Source: Escherichia coli (GTDB taxonomy: Bacteria > Pseudomonadota > Gammaproteobacteria > Enterobacterales > Enterobacteriaceae). Taken from it: 64,000 nt of DNA. The notes beneath the pieces were generated by a model. That model ran no database searches and was not told where the DNA came from. It saw nothing but the letters and a program-made list of their open reading frames with translations. Shown in pieces: positions 36,754-52,633 of this stretch; position 1 is the stretch's first letter, and each line of letters opens with the position of its first letter. The position numbers and the translations under genes are program-made. The stretch is from NCBI RefSeq assembly GCF_016026235.1, contig NZ_CP065613.1. One strand, written 5' to 3'.

Positions 36754-36817
36754 TGAGGTAGCCTGAGTTTAACGGACACTCCTTCCTGAAATAGAATGGC
36801 ATCAGAAGGAGCTAATA

Positions 36818-37120
36818 ATGAGCAGAAAAAACCAACGTTACTCTAAAGAGTTCAAAGCCGAAGCTGTCAGAACGGTTCTTGAAAATCAACTTTCGATCAG
36901 TGAAGGCGCTTCCCGATTATCCCTTCCTGAAGGCACTTTAGGACAATGGGTTACCGCCGCCAGAAAAGGGCTCGGTACTCCTGGTTCCCGCACGGTGGCT
37001 GAACTGGAATCTGAAATTCTGCAACTGCGTAAGGCGTTAAATGAAGCTCGCCTTGAGCGAGATATATTAAAAAAAGCAACAGCGTATTTTGCACAGGAGT
37101 CGCTGAAAAATACGCGTTAA
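36818..37120 (+). CDS. IS600 OrfA
   Basis: 100 aa HTH protein MSRKNQRYSKEFKAEAV. Confidence 0.9.
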   Translation: MSRKNQRYSKEFKAEAVRTVLENQLSISEGASRLSLPEGTLGQWVTAARKGLGTPGSRTVAELESEILQLRKALNEARLERDILKKATAYFAQESLKNTR

Positions 37121-37155
37121 TCGAACAATGGCGACAACAATTTCCCATTGAAGCG

Positions 37156-37974
37156 ATGTGTCAGGTATTTGGTGTATCCAGGAGCGGTTATTACAACTGG
37201 GTACAGCATGAACCCTCAGACAGAAAACAAAGTGATGAGCGGCTAAAACTGGAGATTAAGGTGGCACATATCCGCACTCGCGAAACATATGGAACCCGGC
37301 GGCTCCAGACGGAGCTGGCAGAGAATGGCATCATCGTTGGTCGTGACCGACTGGCACGTCTTCGTAAGGAGCTAAGGCTACGCTGTAAGCAGAAACGCAA
37401 GTTCAGAGCGACTACGAACCCGAACCACAATCTGCCAGTTGCGCCAAATCTGCTGAACCAGACGTTCGCTCCTACAGCACCAAATCAGGTCTGGGTGGCG
37501 GACCTGACGTATGTTGCCACACAGGAGGGATGGTTGTACCTCGCTGGCATCAAAGATGTTTATACGTGCGAAATTGTCGGCTACGCCATGGGAGAGCGCA
37601 TGACAAAAGAGCTGACAGGTAAAGCCCTGTTTATGGCGCTCAGGAGCCAGCGCCCACCTGCCGGGCTAATCCACCACTCTGATCGAGGTTCACAGTACTG
37701 CGCATACGATTACCGGGTCATACAGGAGCAGTCTGGTCTGAAAACATCAATGTCGCGTAAAGGTAACTGTTACGACAACGCTCCGATGGAAAGCTTCTGG
37801 GGAACGCTGAAAAATGAGAGCCTGAGCCACTATCGTTTTAATAACCGGGATGAAGCCATCTCAGTAATACGGGAATACATTGAGATTTTCTACAATCGTC
37901 AGCGTCGTCACTCTCGTCTGGGGAATATCTCCCCGGCAGCCTTCAGGGAAAAATATCATCAGATGGCTGCTTAA
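37156..37974 (+). CDS. IS600 OrfB (DDE transposase; made as OrfAB by -1 frameshift)
   Basis: 272-aa ORF; A-run AAAAAAAG near orfA 3' end. Confidence 0.9.
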   Translation: MCQVFGVSRSGYYNWVQHEPSDRKQSDERLKLEIKVAHIRTRETYGTRRLQTELAENGIIVGRDRLARLRKELRLRCKQKRKFRATTNPNHNLPVAPNLLNQTFAPTAPNQVWVADLTYVATQEGWLYLAGIKDVYTCEIVGYAMGERMTKELTGKALFMALRSQRPPAGLIHHSDRGSQYCAYDYRVIQEQSGLKTSMSRKGNCYDNAPMESFWGTLKNESLSHYRFNNRDEAISVIREYIEIFYNRQRRHSRLGNISPAAFREKYHQMAA

Positions 37975-38017
37975 AAAAAGAACAAATGGTAGTGTCCGCT
38001 ATTGCCAGTACACCTCA

Positions 38018-42999: not shown

Positions 43000-43293
43000 A
43001 TGAAAGTTCAGGCCGTTGGTTTATTCTGGTTTCGCGATGCGATTCAGTATCATGAGCTCAAAAATATTTTTACTGATGCTGATGTGCTCTCCGACAGTTA
43101 CACCGAGTGGAAACACGACGCTGAAAAATTGATTAAGCGTGTCGAAAGAAGCGGGCAACGAGTTATTAAAGTTGAAGCGGATACAGCCGAGTTCATCACC
43201 TGGTGTACAAGCGAAGGCATTGGACTCAATGCCGAAGGTAGAATGCAGTTCGCATCCTTTAAGGCTTACCAACAACTTCTCAGCGAACGCTAA
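43000..43293 (+). CDS. hypothetical protein
   Basis: 97 aa; strong AAAGGAGGT RBS; competes with antisense ORF 43021..43374. Confidence 0.45.
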   Translation: MKVQAVGLFWFRDAIQYHELKNIFTDADVLSDSYTEWKHDAEKLIKRVERSGQRVIKVEADTAEFITWCTSEGIGLNAEGRMQFASFKAYQQLLSER

Positions 43294-43363
43294 TGTGATT
43301 GGGGCAATCGAAATTGTTGCCCCATCGTATTTAATAGTTATTTTTTCGCTCATATCACCACCA

Positions 43364-43573
43364 TCACTTCTCATCCTCTGTGTGCGCTAAGCTTGGATGT
43401 GTATATGGAATGTTCGGATCCAGATGGCAGAGAATGGCAACATCCTCCGGAACGCCCCGCGTTTTCCACTTTCCAACTCCCTGACTACCACGAGGCTTTC
43501 CTTTCTTTGGGAACCTGCGGCCAATAGCGGCATTGGTTTTAAATTGAGTTTTTAATATTTCATAAAGGGTCAT
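43364..43573 (-). CDS. Cro-like early regulator
   Basis: 69 aa, divergent from cI. Confidence 0.55.
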   Translation of the reverse strand: MTLYEILKTQFKTNAAIGRRFPKKGKPRGSQGVGKWKTRGVPEDVAILCHLDPNIPYTHPSLAHTEDEK

Positions 43574-43684
43574 TCTTTAGCCTCACACCGGATACTCTGT
43601 TATCCAAGAATGTTAAACATGAGAATCCAAAGTATCAAGATATTCTGTTACTTTAGTATCAGCAGCCATGAAAGGAGAAGAAAA
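43574..43684. promoter_or_regulatory. divergent cro/cI promoter-operator region
   Basis: 111-bp intergenic with repeated GTATCA and CTGTTA motifs. Confidence 0.5.
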
Positions 43685-44341
43685 ATGAAATCTTTAGGTG
43701 AACGGCTAATCAACGCACGACAAAAAGCTGGGTTAACGCAAGATGCGTTGGCTAAAAAAGCAGGGGTCACCAGAGTTGCAATCAGTAAAGCCGAGCAAGG
43801 CCTTACAAAAAGTTTCAACGGTGACACCCTTTTTAAAGTCGCAGCTGCACTGCAGTGTTCACCGCAGTGGCTTCAGAACGGAGATGAGAAAGGTAAGCAT
43901 TGGGAAAATAATGTTAAGAGTTGCCCCCAGAGGGACACAGCACACTCTTACCCTGTAATTAACTGGGTTCAGGCAGGATTATTCACAACTGCAGGTGATG
44001 ACTACAACATGTATGATCAGGATAACTGGAGGCATTCTGTAAAATACGCTGGTGAGAGGGGGTTCTGGCTGGAAGTGCACGGAGACTCAATGACTTCGCC
44101 TATAGGAATAACATTTCCTGAAGGAATGTCGATCCTTGTCAACCCAGATAAAGAAGTTTTTTCAGGGTGTTACGTCATTGCCAGAAAAAAATCCACCAAT
44201 GAAGCAACATTCAAAAAATATATTTCTGAAATGGGAAAGGCGTTTCTAAAGCCCCTTAATCCACAATACCCAATCATAGAAATGGACAATGATTGCGAAA
44301 TAGTAGGCGTTGTGGTTGATGCCAGATGGGATATTTTCTGA
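43685..44341 (+). CDS. CI-like repressor (HTH plus S24 LexA-like peptidase domain)
   Basis: 218 aa; AGLTQDALAKKAGVTRVAISKAEQG HTH; HGDSM and K of catalytic dyad. Confidence 0.9.
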   Translation: MKSLGERLINARQKAGLTQDALAKKAGVTRVAISKAEQGLTKSFNGDTLFKVAAALQCSPQWLQNGDEKGKHWENNVKSCPQRDTAHSYPVINWVQAGLFTTAGDDYNMYDQDNWRHSVKYAGERGFWLEVHGDSMTSPIGITFPEGMSILVNPDKEVFSGCYVIARKKSTNEATFKKYISEMGKAFLKPLNPQYPIIEMDNDCEIVGVVVDARWDIF

Positions 44342-44443
44342 CCAGATACAAAATACAAAAAGAAACCTAAGTATCAAAAACACTTGCAACACCTTGATAC
44401 CTTAGTTACCATAAAACAAAGTTCGTAACTGAGGTATCATCTC

Positions 44444-44893
44444 ATGATCAATAAAGCTACAACTCTTGACTGTCTCGAAGAACTGAAAAACCTCGGCAGC
44501 CTCATTACACTAATAGCAAAAGCAACGGCAGATGCTACGCTCTCTAGCGATATAGAGTCATGCGCAGGACTGGCATGGGATATGACAAATAGCATATCCA
44601 GAAAGCTATCGTCAGCAATGCTTTTACAGAACAAAAATTCTGCAATCAACAACCGCCTTCGCACCCAACGCGAAGCCTGCGGCTTAACAACAGCCGAACT
44701 CGCCAGGCTGCTCGATCTCGATGAAGAAATTATCATCCAGTGGGAGAGCGGAGAGTATGAACCAACTATCAGTATGCTTATCCCACTGGCAAATATTCTT
44801 GGCTGCGATCCGATGTGGCTGTTAACTGGTGAGGTTACTCCTCCGGAGCAACCAAAAAGTGAGGAGCAGCAACACCATGACGCATCTCAATAA
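44444..44893 (+). CDS. HTH (XRE-type) protein with unknown N-terminal domain
   Basis: 149 aa; C-terminal CGLTTAELARLLDLDEEIIIQWESGEYEP; GTATCA motifs upstream. Confidence 0.65.
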   Translation: MINKATTLDCLEELKNLGSLITLIAKATADATLSSDIESCAGLAWDMTNSISRKLSSAMLLQNKNSAINNRLRTQREACGLTTAELARLLDLDEEIIIQWESGEYEPTISMLIPLANILGCDPMWLLTGEVTPPEQPKSEEQQHHDASQ

Positions 44894-45075
44894 GTTTGCC
44901 CCTTATCTCGCGAAGCTCTTCTACGGAAGAACCAATACCAATGGTGACATAATCGCCGCTTCGCCCCTCAAGGTACATGCGAACATTTTTATCAATCATT
45001 GCGGAAACAGTCTCAATATGAAAACACTTCTGAGACTCGCTATATAGCAGAACATATAAGTCAGCTGAGGAAGCC

Positions 45076-45288
45076 ATGAAAAAGTTCGAAAACATAACTG
45101 TTCTCCATGTTGATGACTTTGATTATACAAACCCGGAACTTCTCCCGGAGGTTGTAAAGGCAATAGATGTTGCCGATATAGTGATTAGAGGAAAGAGAAT
45201 TGTCAAAAACAGGCTCGCATGTACTTCAGGAGCAATGACAGAAACAACCTCACAGCAAGATGATTGGAGCCTGATTCATTTGCGGTAA
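45076..45288 (+). CDS. hypothetical small protein
   Basis: 70 aa with GAGGAAG RBS; competing antisense ORF 44835..45095 also has GGAG. Confidence 0.35.
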   Translation: MKKFENITVLHVDDFDYTNPELLPEVVKAIDVADIVIRGKRIVKNRLACTSGAMTETTSQQDDWSLIHLR

Positions 45289-45417
45289 ATGTTTATCATT
45301 TATTGCATGCAACACAGGTGTTACATACGTCCAGTAATAACGAAACAAAAACACTTGGCAGTGAAATTCTGAATTTTGCATGTGAATATGCAAAAACCGC
45401 TGTTGAAAAAGAATTAG

Positions 45418-45462
45418 CGCAATAACAACAAATATGCCCTGAACGTTTATTGCGGTTTTATC
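45418..45462 (+). terminator. hairpin CGCAATAA/TTATTGCG followed by GTTTTATC
   Basis: 8-bp stem, 21-nt loop, T-rich tail. Confidence 0.35.
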
Positions 45463-45503
45463 GCCGGGGATTGTTACAACCTTAATCCACAGGAGGCTTT
45501 ATT

Positions 45504-45617
45504 ATGACTTTTATAAAGAATATGGCATCACACAAGACCGCCAGCCTTATTGCACAATACGGTGAAAATTACATGCATATTGCCTGCTTATTTCTGCGTA
45601 AAGCATACGGGAAATAA
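45504..45617 (+). CDS. 37-aa small ORF
   Basis: Strong CAGGAGG RBS; stop 3 nt before next ATG. Confidence 0.35.
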   Translation: MTFIKNMASHKTASLIAQYGENYMHIACLFLRKAYGK

Positions 45618-45620
45618 CAA

Positions 45621-45980
45621 ATGACACATGAACCCATTAATACATATCGTCGCCGTATAGCTGTTGCGGCACTCCATCGAATAAAACGTAAAACAGGTAG
45701 TGATCTGCTTATTGTTGACCTTCTGGATGGGAACATTACGACCATAGAAATAACAGAACAGTTTATAAACCAGTTGCTGTTGCGCTTTGAAGGTATTACC
45801 CGTGGTGAATTGGGTCGAGTGGAGGGTGAAACAGAAATCCGAACTGCATACCAGAATGCTATCGGGATTAATCAACATACTGAATACCAGGCTGAAACCG
45901 GAAAGTTAATTATAGACAACCTTTTACAAGAGGTTATTGATTACGCGAAAGAAAAATATATCAGCGGAGGAATTAACTGA
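45621..45980 (+). CDS. hypothetical protein
   Basis: 119 aa; TGATG overlap with next gene. Confidence 0.55.
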   Translation: MTHEPINTYRRRIAVAALHRIKRKTGSDLLIVDLLDGNITTIEITEQFINQLLLRFEGITRGELGRVEGETEIRTAYQNAIGINQHTEYQAETGKLIIDNLLQEVIDYAKEKYISGGIN

Positions 45981-46195
45981 TGGCTAATTTATCCCCTGTA
46001 TCTGTTGTGCACGAAAAAGTGCAGATCGTTATGACAATTGAAAATGGCCAGGTAACAGATGTCTGCAAAGTCCGCGATGGAGAGCTGATTGCCAGCATGG
46101 ATACATTCATACGGCTGGCAGAAAGAGCGGGGTATCAGATAACAGCACCTGCTCAGGAGGAAACCAGTGACATTAACAGCAACACGAATTCCTGA
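45980..46195 (+). CDS. hypothetical protein
   Basis: 71 aa, translationally coupled. Confidence 0.5.
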   Translation: MANLSPVSVVHEKVQIVMTIENGQVTDVCKVRDGELIASMDTFIRLAERAGYQITAPAQEETSDINSNTNS

Positions 46196-46385
46196 GTGGG
46201 TCCACCAGCAGGCGTTGCTGGTCCTGCGGCGGTACAGATGCCGACGTATATTCCCGCATCGGATACAGCGCAACGGATATCTCAGTCTGAAGGTTAACCG
46301 TCGCTGGCGGCTGTTATCGAAAGACGACGGCCGGAACTGGGAAGTAATGAGTCATGAACGTTATTCGGGGGAAATAAAGAAATGA
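46167..46385 (+). CDS. hypothetical basic protein, GTG start
   Basis: AGGAGG RBS before GTG; C-terminus RNWEVMSHERY loosely recalls HigB/RelE toxin tails. Confidence 0.5.
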   Translation: MTLTATRIPEWVHQQALLVLRRYRCRRIFPHRIQRNGYLSLKVNRRWRLLSKDDGRNWEVMSHERYSGEIKK

Positions 46386-46532
46386 TCGACAACCGCACCG
46401 CCAGCGCCATTGACCAGGCATTACAGAAACATGATACACCCGTCGGCCCGTTATTTTTTGTAACACGCCACGAAAGAACAAAAAATGCCTCACCCGAAAA
46501 ACGGCAATTCGTTACCTGGCATTCTTTATGAC
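46383..46532 (+). CDS. hypothetical small protein
   Basis: 49 aa, ATGA overlaps on both sides. Confidence 0.4.
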
Positions 46533-46773
46533 CACCCGCGCTTTTGAACGTTCAGGATTCCGACAACGCCATCCTGACAAGCGTTTTATCTTCAACGGGA
46601 ATGAGATATGGAAACGTGGAGAATCAACCACAGAGTATACCCGCGCACACCAGCGAACAATCAGACGACTGCGCAGACTCATCGCCAGGAAACAGTATAC
46701 AGAAAAATGGTTCAGAAAATATGACACATGGAGCGCCGGATATTACGAACTGATGGCAACAAAACCATTCTGA
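46528..46773 (+). CDS. hypothetical basic protein
   Basis: 81 aa, ATGA-coupled. Confidence 0.45.
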   Translation: MTTRAFERSGFRQRHPDKRFIFNGNEIWKRGESTTEYTRAHQRTIRRLRRLIARKQYTEKWFRKYDTWSAGYYELMATKPF

Positions 46774-46833
46774 CGTAAACGAAATTAACCATGACGCAAT
46801 TAAATAAGGCAAGCCGAATACATCAGGAGGACC

Positions 46834-47022
46834 ATGAACATTTATTTCAGAATAGTTATATCACTGGCAATTATCGCATGTATTTACGGATTAATCGTTC
46901 CGGCCCTCATATCAATGAAGGATACGGTAGCAGTGATTTCTGGCTTTGCTCTGGCGTGTCTGACCCCGCCCTGCATTTATGCCATTTATAAGGGTCTTTC
47001 TTTCCCCAGGAGGGAAAAATGA
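46834..47022 (+). CDS. small membrane protein (two predicted TM segments)
   Basis: 62 aa; CAGGAGG RBS; stop overlaps SPFH ATG. Confidence 0.55.
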   Translation: MNIYFRIVISLAIIACIYGLIVPALISMKDTVAVISGFALACLTPPCIYAIYKGLSFPRREK

Positions 47023-47828
47023 AAAAAACAATTGCGCTTGTTTTCGCGGTCAGTCTGGCTGTCTTCGGACTTGTAGGTTGCGATCGCGTTGAACCAGGTA
47101 ATGTGGGTATCAAAGTCAACAAACTGGGCGACGACAAAGGTGTCGGTGAAGTGGTCGGTGTTGGTCGCTACTGGACTGGCTGGAATACTGAAGTTTACAT
47201 TTTCCCGACCTTCAAGCAAATGAAGACCTACGATGAACCGTTCAGTTTCCAGATGAGTGACGGCACAACCATCGGCTATCACATCGGCGTGGCCTACAAA
47301 GTTGATCCATCCAAAGTTACCACGGTGTTTCAGACTTACCGCAAAGGCGTGGATGACATTACCAACACCGACCTGCGCCAGAAGATCGCCGACGCACTCA
47401 ATCGGCTGGCCAGCAAAATGACCACCGACAAATTTATTGACGGCGGCAAGTCTGAACTACTGGATGCCGCACTTAAAGACATTCAGGAAGAGATGACACC
47501 CATCGGCATTCAGGTAATGAGCCTCTCTTATGTAGGTAAACCGGAATACCCTCCAACCGTTATCGACAGCATTAACGCCAAAGTCACGGCAAACCAGAAA
47601 ACCCTGCAGCGCGAACAGGAAGTCAAGCAACGTGAAGCGGAGGCCAACATGCTACGTGCGGAAGCTGCCGGACAGGCTGATGCCATTCGAACAAAAGCCC
47701 AGGCAGAAGCCGATGCCATTCGTTTACGCGGCGAAGCTCTACGCCAGAACCCAGGCGTCATGGAGCTGGAAGCCATCAACAAGTGGAACGGTACACTGCC
47801 GCAATACATGACCAGTGGTGTGAGGTAG
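47019..47828 (+). CDS. SPFH/band-7 family lipoprotein, last codons replaced by IS600
   Basis: Lipobox LVGC; SPFH core; Ala/Glu/Arg-rich coiled coil; final residues VR encoded by IS600 left end. Confidence 0.8.
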   Translation: MKKTIALVFAVSLAVFGLVGCDRVEPGNVGIKVNKLGDDKGVGEVVGVGRYWTGWNTEVYIFPTFKQMKTYDEPFSFQMSDGTTIGYHIGVAYKVDPSKVTTVFQTYRKGVDDITNTDLRQKIADALNRLASKMTTDKFIDGGKSELLDAALKDIQEEMTPIGIQVMSLSYVGKPEYPPTVIDSINAKVTANQKTLQREQEVKQREAEANMLRAEAAGQADAIRTKAQAEADAIRLRGEALRQNPGVMELEAINKWNGTLPQYMTSGVR

Positions 47829-47884
47829 CCTGAGTTTAACGGACACTCCTTCCTGAAATAGAATGGCATCAGAAGGAGCTAATA

Positions 47885-48187
47885 ATGAGCAGAAAAACCC
47901 AACGTTACTCTAAAGAGTTCAAAGCCGAAGCTGTCAGAACGGTTCTTGAAAATCAACTTTCGATCAGTGAAGGCGCTTCCCGATTATCTCTTCCTGAAGG
48001 CACTTTAGGACAATGGGTTACCGCCGCCAGAAAAGGGCTCGGTACTCCTGGTTCCCGCACGGTGGCTGAACTGGAATCTGAAATTCTGCAACTGCGTAAG
48101 GCGTTAAATGAAGCTCGCCTTGAGCGAGATATATTAAAAAAAGCAACAGCGTATTTTGCACAGGAGTCGCTGAAAAATACGCGTTAA
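47885..48187 (+). CDS. IS600 OrfA
   Basis: Near-identical to copy 1. Confidence 0.9.
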   Translation: MSRKTQRYSKEFKAEAVRTVLENQLSISEGASRLSLPEGTLGQWVTAARKGLGTPGSRTVAELESEILQLRKALNEARLERDILKKATAYFAQESLKNTR

Positions 48188-48222
48188 TCGAACAATGGCG
48201 ACAACAATTTCCCATTGAAGCG

Positions 48223-49041
48223 ATGTGTCAGGTATTTGGTGTATCCAGGAGCGGTTATTACAACTGGGTACAGCATGAACCCTCAGACAGAAAACAAAGT
48301 GATGAGCGGCTAAAACTGGAGATTAAGGTGGCACATATCCGCACTCGCGAAACATATGGAACCCGGCGGCTCCAGACGGAGCTGGCAGAGAATGGCATCA
48401 TCGTTGGTCGTGACCGACTGGCACGTCTTCGTAAGGAGCTAAGGCTACGCTGTAAGCAGAAACGCAAGTTCAGAGCGACTACGAACCCGAACCACAATCT
48501 GCCAGTTGCGCCAAATCTGCTGAACCAGACGTTCGCTCCTACAGCACCAAATCAGGTCTGGGTGGCGGACCTGACGTATGTTGCCACACAGGAGGGATGG
48601 TTGTACCTCGCTGGCATCAAAGATGTTTATACGTGCGAAATTGTCGGCTACGCCATGGGAGAGCGCATGACAAAAGAGCTGACAGGTAAAGCCCTGTTTA
48701 TGGCGCTCAGGAGCCAGCGCCCACCTGCCGGGCTAATCCACCACTCTGATCGAGGTTCACAGTACTGCGCATACGATTACCGGGTCATACAGGAGCAGTC
48801 TGGTCTGAAAACATCAATGTCGCGTAAAGGTAACTGTTACGACAACGCTCCGATGGAAAGCTTCTGGGGAACGCTGAAAAATGAGAGCCTGAGCCACTAT
48901 CGTTTTAATAACCGGGATGAAGCCATCTCAGTAATACGGGAATACATTGAGATTTTCTACAATCGTCAGCGTCGTCACTCTCGTCTGGGGAATATCTCCC
49001 CGGCAGCCTTCAGGGAAAAATATCATCAGATGGCTGCTTAA
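48223..49041 (+). CDS. IS600 OrfB
   Basis: Identical to copy 1. Confidence 0.9.
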   Translation: MCQVFGVSRSGYYNWVQHEPSDRKQSDERLKLEIKVAHIRTRETYGTRRLQTELAENGIIVGRDRLARLRKELRLRCKQKRKFRATTNPNHNLPVAPNLLNQTFAPTAPNQVWVADLTYVATQEGWLYLAGIKDVYTCEIVGYAMGERMTKELTGKALFMALRSQRPPAGLIHHSDRGSQYCAYDYRVIQEQSGLKTSMSRKGNCYDNAPMESFWGTLKNESLSHYRFNNRDEAISVIREYIEIFYNRQRRHSRLGNISPAAFREKYHQMAA

Positions 49042-49150
49042 AAAAAGAACAAATGGTAGTGTCCGCTATTGCCAGTACACCTCAGTGCCAATACACCATT
49101 TATCCAGATTAAATAACTTATATGCCCGGCAGGCCGCCGGGCTAAGGGAA

Positions 49151-50252: not shown

Positions 50253-51425
50253 ATGGATAAAGTCAAATATCCAACAGGCGTCGAAAACCACGGTGGCACA
50301 TTACGCATCTGGTTTAATTTTAAAGGTAAACGTGTCAGGGAAAATCTTGGTGTCCCTGACACTGCCAAGAACAGGAAGATCGCCGGAGAGCTGCGGACAT
50401 CTGTATGTTTTGCCATTCGTACAGGAAATTTTGATTATGCTGCGCAGTTCCCTGACTCTCCTAACCTCAAGGCTTTTGGGGTAAATAAAAAAGAAATTAC
50501 GGTGAAAGAACTTGAAGAAAAATGGCTGGATCTGAAACGAATGGAAATCTCTGCAAATGCATTCAATCGCTATGAATCCATTGCAAGGATGATGGTTCCG
50601 AAGATTGGTGGCAACCGACTGGTATCAGCAGTGACCAAAGAGGAATTGCTGTATATCAGGAAAGATTTGCTGACCGGATACCAAAATCCAACAAAAGGTA
50701 AAGCTCCAGTAAAAGGACGAAGCGTTGTCACAGTAAATTATTACATGACAACAATCGCTGGAATGTTTCAGTTTGCTGCAGATCACGGTTACATAGAAGC
50801 AAATCCCTTCGAGGGAATTAAGCCTCTTAAAAGAGCCAGGGCAGAACCAGATCCGCTAACTCGTGACGAATTTATTCGCCTGATAGATGCTTGCCGGCAT
50901 CAGCAGACAAAAAACCTGTGGTCATTGGCTGTGTACACAGGAATGCGTCATGGTGAACTGGTCTCCCTGGCCTGGGAAGATATCGATCTGAAAGCAGGAA
51001 CAATTACTATCAGGCGCAATTATACGAAACTCGGTGAGTTCACTCTACCTAAAACTGAAGCAAGTACAAACAGGGTTGTGCATCTTATCCAGCCCGCTAT
51101 CAGTGTCCTGAAAAATCAGGCTGAAATGACAAGACTGGGTAAGCAGCACAACATCAAGGTTCAACTACGTGAATATGGACGTTCAGTAAATCATGAATGT
51201 ACTTTCGTATTTAACCCCCAGGTGGTTAGAAAAAGCAAACAGGTAGGTTTTATCTACAAGGTAGATTCCATTGGCGACTCATGGGAAACAGCCATTAAAC
51301 GTGCAGGCATCAGGCATCGAAAGGCATACCAGTCACGACACACTTATGCGTGCTGGTCATTATCTGCCGGAGCAAATCCAAGCTTCATTGCCAGCCAGAT
51401 GGGGCATGCAAGTGAGGTAGCCTGA
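50253..51425 (+). pseudogene. int: tyrosine integrase, 3' end interrupted by IS600
   Basis: GGAGG RBS; catalytic region through HTYACWSLSAGANPSFIASQMGH then IS600 from 51413. Confidence 0.85.
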
Positions 51426-51476
51426 GTTTAACGGACACTCCTTCCTGAAATAGAATGGCATCAGAAGGAGCTAATA

Positions 51477-51779
51477 ATGAGCAGAAAAACCCAACGTTAC
51501 TCTAAAGAGTTCAAAGCCGAAGCTGTCAGAACGGTTCTTGAAAATCAACTTTCGATCAGTGAAGGCGCTTCCCGATTATCCCTTCCTGAAGGCACTTTAG
51601 GACAATGGGTTACCGCCGCCAGAAAAGGGCTCGGTACTCCTGGCTCCCGCACGGTGGCTGAACTGGAATCTGAAATTCTGCAACTGCGTAAGGCGTTAAA
51701 TGAAGCTCGCCTTGAGCGAGATATATTAAAAAAAGCAACAGCGTATTTTGCACAGGAGTCGCTGAAAAATACGCGTTAA
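51477..51779 (+). CDS. IS600 OrfA
   Basis: As copy 2. Confidence 0.9.
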   Translation: MSRKTQRYSKEFKAEAVRTVLENQLSISEGASRLSLPEGTLGQWVTAARKGLGTPGSRTVAELESEILQLRKALNEARLERDILKKATAYFAQESLKNTR

Positions 51780-51814
51780 TCGAACAATGGCGACAACAAT
51801 TTCCCATTGAAGCG

Positions 51815-52633
51815 ATGTGTCAGGTATTTGGTGTATCCAGGAGCGGTTATTACAACTGGGTACAGCATGAACCCTCAGACAGAAAACAAAGTGATGAGCG
51901 GCTAAAACTGGAGATTAAGGTGGCACATATCCGCACTCGCGAAACATATGGAACCCGGCGGCTCCAGACGGAGCTGGCAGAGAATGGCATCATCGTTGGT
52001 CGTGACCGACTGGCACGTCTTCGTAAGGAGCTAAGGCTACGCTGTAAGCAGAAACGCAAGTTCAGAGCGACTACGAACCCGAACCACAATCTGCCAGTTG
52101 CGCCAAATCTGCTGAACCAGACGTTCGCTCCTACAGCACCAAATCAGGTCTGGGTGGCGGACCTGACGTATGTTGCCACACAGGAGGGATGGTTGTACCT
52201 CGCTGGCATCAAAGATGTTTATACGTGCGAAATTGTCGGCTACGCCATGGGAGAGCGCATGACAAAAGAGCTGACAGGTAAAGCCCTGTTTATGGCGCTC
52301 AGGAGCCAGCGCCCACCTGCCGGGCTAATCCACCACTCTGATCGAGGTTCACAGTACTGCGCATACGATTACCGGGTCATACAGGAGCAGTTTGGTCTGA
52401 AAACATCAATGTCGCGTAAAGGTAACTGTTACGACAACGCTCCGATGGAAAGCTTCTGGGGAACGCTGAAAAATGAGAGCCTGAGCCACTATCGTTTTAA
52501 TAACCGGGATGAAGCCATCTCAGTAATACGGGAATACATTGAGATTTTCTACAATCGTCAGCGTCGTCACTCTCGTCTGGGGAATATCTCCCCGGCAGCC
52601 TTCAGGGAAAAATATCATCAGATGGCTGCTTAA
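51815..52633 (+). CDS. IS600 OrfB
   Basis: One substitution (F for S) versus other copies. Confidence 0.9.
   Translation: MCQVFGVSRSGYYNWVQHEPSDRKQSDERLKLEIKVAHIRTRETYGTRRLQTELAENGIIVGRDRLARLRKELRLRCKQKRKFRATTNPNHNLPVAPNLLNQTFAPTAPNQVWVADLTYVATQEGWLYLAGIKDVYTCEIVGYAMGERMTKELTGKALFMALRSQRPPAGLIHHSDRGSQYCAYDYRVIQEQFGLKTSMSRKGNCYDNAPMESFWGTLKNESLSHYRFNNRDEAISVIREYIEIFYNRQRRHSRLGNISPAAFREKYHQMAA

Follow-up and report, generated by a model that had tools for sequence, protein, structure and literature searches.

The leftward (pL) operons of lambdoid phages carry small host-takeover genes, such as kil, cIII, ral, and gam in lambda and kil, arf, and abc in P22. A toxin-antitoxin (TA) system of the ParE superfamily, paaR2-paaA2-parE2, has been described in a lambdoid immunity region, namely in the cryptic prophage CP-933P of E. 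coli O157:H7 (PMC8630535). The gp49-type genes adjoin the gene of an HTH antitoxin in the order toxin then antitoxin, and the catalytic residues found in the RNase branch are missing from ParE gyrase poisons (Gerdes 2025, PMC11980606). The same survey covers 13 Pfam families, and PF24732, the family that concerns us here, is absent from it (Gerdes 2025, PMC11980606).

We describe a prophage cassette with a member of PF24732 (ORF4) in the window, i.e., the whole stretch of 64,000 nucleotides of E. coli DNA that was analysed. Our preferred but tentative reading, to which we assign a probability of roughly 45%, is that of a lytic-cycle early-operon cassette in which the RelE-fold protein ORF4 would act on RNA or translation, with a 130-aa protein as its closest evolutionary partner, and which is decaying here. 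The features of the locus are collected in Table 1.

Table 1. Features of the cassette and its surroundings (positions in the window)
Feature	Coordinates	Strand	Description
CI-type repressor	43685..44341	+	HTH (DicA/RstR) and LexA/UmuD S24 peptidase domains (NCBIfam); RefSeq 'XRE family transcriptional regulator'
Operator-like repeats	44369..44439	.	(A/G)GTATCA half-site three times, between repressor stop and first downstream gene; probable OL/pL
DicA/CII-like HTH gene	44444-44893		149 aa; after repressor
phrog_5451 gene	45076-45425		about 121 aa; just upstream of cassette; split at 45264 by a 16-nt deletion when compared with E. coli relatives
ORF1	45504..45617	+	conserved basic 37-aa micro-protein, C-terminal L(F/Y)LRKAYG(K/R)
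ORF2	45621..45980	+	119 aa, phrog_1737, WP_000148628 family
ORF3	45980..46195	+	acidic 71 aa, pI 4.5, phrog_340; last 29 nt overlap ORF4
ORF4	46167..46385	+	basic 72 aa, pI 11.3, GTG start, PF24732 ParE_like; intact in window
130-aa gene (pseudogene)	46382..46773	+	very basic, phrog_1886, WP_000566773 family; ORF5 (46382-46531) and ORF6 (46528-46773)
62-aa membrane protein (phrog_1130) and SPFH-domain protein	46834-47828		4-nt overlap
IS3-family element, three copies	36754-38017, 47820-49084, 51412-52676		1264 bp, 99.8% identical; orfA 100 aa, orfB 272 aa

A first-pass annotation had called six translationally coupled small ORFs of 37-119 aa. The ORF listing contains all of them with the claimed lengths, starting at 45504, 45621, 45980, 46167 (GTG), 46382/3, and 46528. 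The number of genes is five, one of which is a pseudogene, because ORF5 and ORF6 are the halves of one gene. The ORFs are co-directional and tightly packed, as proposed for a single operon. Overlaps of 0-4 nt had been claimed throughout and are found at ORF2/ORF3 (1 nt, TGATG) and at ORF4/ORF5 and ORF5/ORF6 (ATGA, 4 nt each), but ORF3 and ORF4 overlap by 29 nt and a gap of 3 nt separates ORF1 from ORF2. Similarly, the ribosome binding sites (RBS) assigned to every ORF differ in quality. Good Shine-Dalgarno sequences precede ORF1 (AGGAGG, 8 nt 5' of the start), ORF3 (GGAGG), and ORF4 (AGGAGG), those of ORF2 (GGGAA) and ORF5 (GGGGAA) are weak, and ORF6 has none in its upstream sequence (ttcgttacctggcattcttt).

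The cassette segment is present in 287 of 5,426 complete E. coli genomes (megablast), with 98.7% identity for the best match. As a reference for the frameshift, we used L001, an E. coli prophage that is 98.7% identical to the window in the alignment. In L001, ORF5 (49 aa) and ORF6 (81 aa) together form one gene of 393 nt, which encodes 130 aa (WP_000566773), and a single 393-nt gene is also annotated by RefSeq at this position in relatives. A run of seven A in L001 is shortened by one A in the window (46480-46485), which splits the gene. The apparent ATGA coupling of ORF5 and ORF6 is an artefact because the ATG of ORF6 is the internal Met50 of the 130-aa gene. Relative to L001, the window copy also has the substitution G31E (at 46473); Gly31 is invariant in the family and part of an R29-H30-G31 motif. 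This substitution is consistent with relaxed selection after inactivation of the gene. An identical frameshift is present in the IMG/VR contig L005, and the gene is intact (127-146 aa) in nearly all relatives. The intact protein is extremely basic (pI 10-11), and the predicted model of its core reaches pLDDT 88-95 and has no specific counterpart among PDB folds. No Pfam domain or HTH was found when single sequences and every member of the alignment were scanned, and sequence and profile searches of the PDB with the family gave chance matches only.

The cassette lies between the SOS-type repressor and xis/int, all on one strand; in intact relatives, the same strand continues to xis and int. The first-pass annotation had spoken of an immunity-proximal accessory region. 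Early-left (pL-type) operon is the better term for a position between repressor and integrase and downstream of operator-like repeats. The half-site of these repeats, (A/G)GTATCA, occurs two more times in the repressor-cro intergenic region (43630-43662). Judged by such short repeats, 44369-44439 is probably the OL/pL region that controls the cassette. No terminator on the + strand was predicted from this region to 47800. The scan for promoters and terminators did not exceed chance (8 promoters found vs. 7.7 expected), and a search of 43000-48000 with Rfam, covering both strands, gave sub-threshold chance matches only. With an SOS-type repressor on one side, the integrase on the other, and operator-like repeats ahead of it, the cassette is probably part of an early-left operon of a lambda-like prophage and silent in lysogens.

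Within the putative operator region, 44395-44439 holds an inverted repeat of 15 bp (93% complementary, 15-nt spacer) with GTATCA half-sites. Its end is 4 nt away from the downstream ATG of the 149-aa HTH gene, whose Shine-Dalgarno sequence falls within the repeat. The repeat could represent paired operators, or it could form an RNA hairpin and thereby block the RBS.

The prophage is decaying, as seen from the frameshift and G31E in the 130-aa gene, the 16-nt deletion upstream of the cassette, and the SPFH gene and integrase cut by IS elements. The SPFH gene has lost its 3' end to the second IS copy, and the tyrosine integrase of the prophage is truncated by the third. This IS3-family element is presumably IS600-like, which would point to a Shigella-type genome. 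In the window, the cassette has probably lost its function as a unit.

Further observations concern the surroundings. The phrog_5451 gene is a second pseudogene of the operon, and RefSeq marks only its 3' 68 codons even in intact relatives. The pair of the 62-aa membrane protein and the SPFH-domain protein is reminiscent of NfeD/SPFH and is confined to those loci that are most closely related to the cassette. Chromosomal genes (a PRK10302-family protein, cmoA, and cmoB at 52860-55782) flank the end of the prophage. This end corresponds to the yecE-region attachment site, which is used by 'PPyecE' and some Stx phages. A DNA search of phage databases gave only partial matches, to 'PPyecE' and some Stx phages.

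For the comparison, we used 80 IMG/VR loci that encode relatives of ORF4. ORF1, ORF2, ORF3, ORF4, and the 130-aa gene follow each other in the same order in nearly all of these loci, with 30-100% protein identity, so that at least 80 prophage loci of enterobacteria share the cassette. The dN/dS values (Nei-Gojobori) are 0.16-0.29 across all five genes, which indicates purifying selection, and the recurrence of the gene set is far beyond chance. The first-pass annotation had named a lack of conservation of the ORFs as a set as evidence that would speak against it; they are conserved as a set.

Related loci contain 36 different intact versions of ORF1, which are 32-38 aa long, and its dN/dS is 0.18. 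It carries no annotation in either of the two RefSeq relatives examined. By its conservation, ORF1 is a real gene that was overlooked by RefSeq. No PHROG match was obtained for ORF1, including six divergent variants that were searched, and we rejected its identification as a known small phage peptide (Kil-like).

ORF2 is present in about 79 of the 80 related loci (dN/dS 0.19). It matches its PHROG family phrog_1737 with E = 4e-51 and has no match in Pfam. The PHROG families of ORF2, ORF3, ORF4, and the 130-aa protein are all of unknown function. The first-pass annotation had seen no resemblance to lambda recombination or regulatory genes, in agreement with searches of NCBIfam, Pfam, and PADLOC, where only ORF4 gave a match (Pfam). 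PADLOC, which covers known anti-phage defence systems, had no significant match for any cassette protein. No publication turned up when the literature was searched for PF24732, the RefSeq accessions, or the PHROG ids, and broader searches brought up only the paaR2-paaA2-parE2 precedent and the Gerdes survey. Thus, the ORF4 family is already present in Pfam and RefSeq, and no experimental characterization was found in the searched literature.

ORF4 matches PF24732 (ParE_like, 'ParE-like toxin domain') over residues 10-66 with E = 8.3e-18, and the domain is present in 66 of 66 close homologues. RefSeq names the product 'ParE family toxin-like protein'. Structure prediction, which had been proposed as a check, was run with AlphaFold2 on an alignment of 35 homologues and gave a model with pLDDT 92.9 and the topology beta, alpha, beta, beta, beta, alpha. 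This agrees with the small alpha/beta fold of the RelE/ParE (BECR) superfamily, in which one or more N-terminal helices pack on a 3-4 stranded antiparallel sheet. The only consistent structural matches are RelE, HigB, YoeB, YafQ, and ParE toxins, and the top matches are mostly mRNA interferases. In its 72 aa, ORF4 has one N-terminal helix only; canonical toxins have another. On the basis of the model, ORF4 is a minimal member of the RelE/ParE (BECR) fold superfamily.

At the sequence level, ORF4 stands apart. The C-terminus RNWEVMSHERY had been noted as loosely recalling HigB/RelE. Indeed, when the ORF4 family is aligned by hhalign with E. coli HigB (sequence checked against 5IFG), WEVMSHERY and REVMTHKEY come out as the sole similar stretch, at a non-significant probability of 2.9%. 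Against YoeB, the expected motifs are aligned with a probability of 0.2%, which is not significant either. With these probabilities, the hhalign matches were not accepted as a sign of homology to HigB or YoeB. Profile comparison with the HigB family PF09907 (E. coli YgjN/HigB) gave no significant match, and phmmer and hmmsearch of the PDB with the ORF4 family gave nothing beyond chance.

Among 41 diverse members of PF24732, the conserved polar residues are R48 (41/41), H63 (38/41), and Y66 (39/41), with E64 in 27/41. R48, H63, and Y66 are paired with YoeB R65, H83, and Y84 or with the HigB motif by the non-significant hhalign matches only. Since these three residues are nearly invariant and ParE poisons have no such catalytic residues, an RNase-type function of ORF4 is favoured. 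ParE gyrase poisons are recognized by PF05016 together with the absence of RNase catalytic residues, and ORF4, which is not in PF05016, does not show this combination.

ORF4 might also be an inert, non-toxic RelE-fold protein with another job in the phage, or a ParE-type gyrase poison. The other job could be to regulate by binding ribosomes or RNA, or to serve as a decoy for TA or defence systems of the host. ORF4 has no family-wide partner and is yet intact in many lysogens, it is small with one N-terminal helix fewer than canonical toxins, and E64 is only partly conserved. For a gyrase poison, the ParE-like names in Pfam and RefSeq can be added. However, the strict conservation of R48, H63, and Y66 resembles the active sites of the RNase branch, such residues are absent from ParE toxins, and mRNA interferases prevail among the top structural matches. 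Hence, we regard an inert protein or a gyrase poison as doubtful and prefer an ORF4 that acts on RNA or translation.

The first-pass annotation had considered a toxin-containing module possible. The RelE/ParE toxin fold of ORF4 agrees with this, but a classical TA module is not supported. One such module would be a true type II pair of ORF3 and ORF4, in which an acidic antitoxin and a basic toxin are translationally linked and stabilize the prophage or serve in abortive-infection defence, comparable to paaA2-parE2. An ORF3-type acidic protein (pI 4.3-6) is encoded just upstream of ORF4 in nearly all of the about 80 related loci; these proteins are divergent but homologous, and the overlap of 29 nt is kept. 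This universal overlap and the acidic/basic pairing are still compatible with a TA-like pair, as are the toxin fold of ORF4 and the precedent for a ParE-superfamily TA system in a lambdoid immunity region (PMC8630535). However, ORF3 has no match in Pfam, NCBIfam, or PDB sequences and no recognizable DNA-binding or antitoxin domain, the promoter signal before the pair is not above chance, and PADLOC has no match for it. Identity of ORF4 correlates with identity of ORF3 with a rho of 0.31, and in 45% of the comparisons of near-identical ORF4 pairs, the ORF3 cores are <50% identical, which suggests that ORF3 is exchanged independently of ORF4. Furthermore, ORF3 is broken beside an intact ORF4 by a premature stop (L026, L027, L033) or an IS insertion (L005), and distant PF24732 members have no ORF3 homologue; some of them have an exonuclease directly upstream. 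We therefore judge a true ORF3/ORF4 pair to be unlikely and keep ORF3 as a candidate modulator of ORF4.

In the ORF3 homologues of several relatives (L053, L058, L066, L068, L075), about 200 nt upstream of ORF4, the reading frame changes at a proline/C-rich tract, such that the N-terminal extension (M..QQ..IPPP) and the conserved core are in different frames. A sequencing error, real decay, or the use of a downstream start could account for this arrangement.

On the other side of ORF4, the downstream 130-aa protein could be the antitoxin or regulator of a HigBA-like pair with the toxin first. The ATGA overlap of 4 nt between the two genes is present in about 76 of 80 loci, identities of ORF4 and the 130-aa protein covary strongly (Spearman rho 0.76), and the C-terminal motif of ORF4 resembles that of PF09907 HigB, which is encoded in the order toxin then antitoxin. 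The high pI of the 130-aa protein and its lack of an HTH or Pfam domain nevertheless speak against an antitoxin. A fusion of ORF4, a linker, and the 130-aa protein modelled with AlphaFold2 on a paired alignment reached a pTM of 0.48 and gained no confidence, so no confident complex of the two is predicted. In addition, the 130-aa gene is frameshifted (window, L005) or absent or replaced (L070, L076) beside an intact ORF4, and homologues are missing at distant family members. A HigBA-like pair thus appears improbable, less likely still than a pair with ORF3.

Taken together, several usual marks of type II TA systems are not seen. Across the family, there is no adjacent conserved or co-evolving antitoxin, as the neighbours of distant PF24732 genes are not homologous to ORF3 or the 130-aa protein. 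Neither a DNA-binding antitoxin domain nor a dedicated promoter was detected among the cassette proteins and in the scan mentioned above. Either candidate antitoxin gene can be broken beside an intact ORF4, and such a partner loss would be tolerable if the operon is silent in lysogens.

PF24732 is limited to phages and prophages. An exhaustive HMM search of 1.84 billion representatives gave only about 132 clusters, almost all of them stand-alone proteins of 60-100 aa. PF24732 genes also lie in P2-like early operons (Cox, Rv2179c-like exonuclease, ParE_like, Toprim primase, Ogr) and near holin and lysozyme genes in Murrayvirus phages (about 42 kb), which we take to be virulent (L086-L088 and L093 for both settings). 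In the Murrayvirus phages, one record names the gene 'putative toxin antitoxin system protein'. HMMs of ORF1, ORF2, ORF3, and the 130-aa protein found nothing at distant PF24732 loci.

In the preferred reading of a lytic-cycle early-operon cassette, a repressor-controlled pL-type promoter just after the repressor gene would transcribe the genes. The cassette would stay silent in the lysogen and be switched on early once the prophage is induced or a cell is infected; alternatively, an internal or read-through promoter might be active in lysogens. ORF4 would target RNA or translation; its most likely activity is that of an endoribonuclease similar to RelE, HigB, and YoeB that uses R48, H63, and Y66, and its role would be host takeover or regulation in lytic growth rather than prophage addiction. 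The partners in the cassette would probably tune ORF4, with the basic 130-aa protein as the tighter evolutionary partner and the acidic ORF3 as a possible neutralizer.

A bolder proposal, which we rate as rather unlikely, extends this to the whole family. PF24732 might be a distinct class of antitoxin-less RelE-fold RNases in the early operons of lambdoid, P2-like, and Murrayvirus phages that act in lytic growth only and reprogram or shut off host translation, joined in the lambdoid cassette by a co-evolving 130-aa fold orphan and an unannotated 37-aa micro-protein. If ORF4-type proteins are lytic-only RNases, the RelE/ParE superfamily would extend from addiction and defence to phage offence (host takeover), with a fourteenth, phage-specific family beside the 13 surveyed. 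The cassette also holds three conserved proteins without recognizable fold or domain and one micro-protein missed by automated annotation, all of which should be readily accessible to functional studies in inducible relatives from E. coli or Klebsiella. The window itself should be annotated with five genes, one of them a pseudogene, in a decaying prophage.

Compared to RelE, YoeB, YafQ, HigB (PF09907, PF05015), and ParE (PF05016), ORF4 has no significant sequence similarity. It differs from the RelE/ParE type II toxins by its smaller size, its single N-terminal helix, and its separate Pfam family. Moreover, PF24732 lacks a family-wide cognate antitoxin, and its genes reside in early operons of phages instead of autoregulated bicistronic modules.

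As in paaR2-paaA2-parE2, a ParE-superfamily protein follows a small acidic protein without DNA-binding domain in a lambdoid prophage, and both are transcribed co-directionally with the CI-like repressor gene (PMC8630535). However, paaA2-parE2 lies directly behind the repressor gene, belongs to the operon that is expressed in lysogens, and is demonstrably addictive. The cassette, in contrast, is separated from the repressor gene by operator-like repeats and two further genes, ORF4 falls outside PF05016, and ORF4 can stay intact when a candidate partner is lost. A link to paaA2-parE2 was rejected because the Pfam family differs, as does the location with respect to the repressor.

The gp49/HigB-type toxins of phages (PF05973), like further RelE homologues that phages carry, share the RelE fold and the carriage by temperate phages with ORF4, but no adjacent HTH antitoxin is detectable beside ORF4. 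Finally, PHROGs and NCBIfam detect no sequence similarity to any of the lambdoid pL takeover genes. The likeness of the cassette to these genes is positional only: it occupies the same map position from immunity to xis/int, its genes are small and tightly packed, and they are probably expressed upon derepression only.
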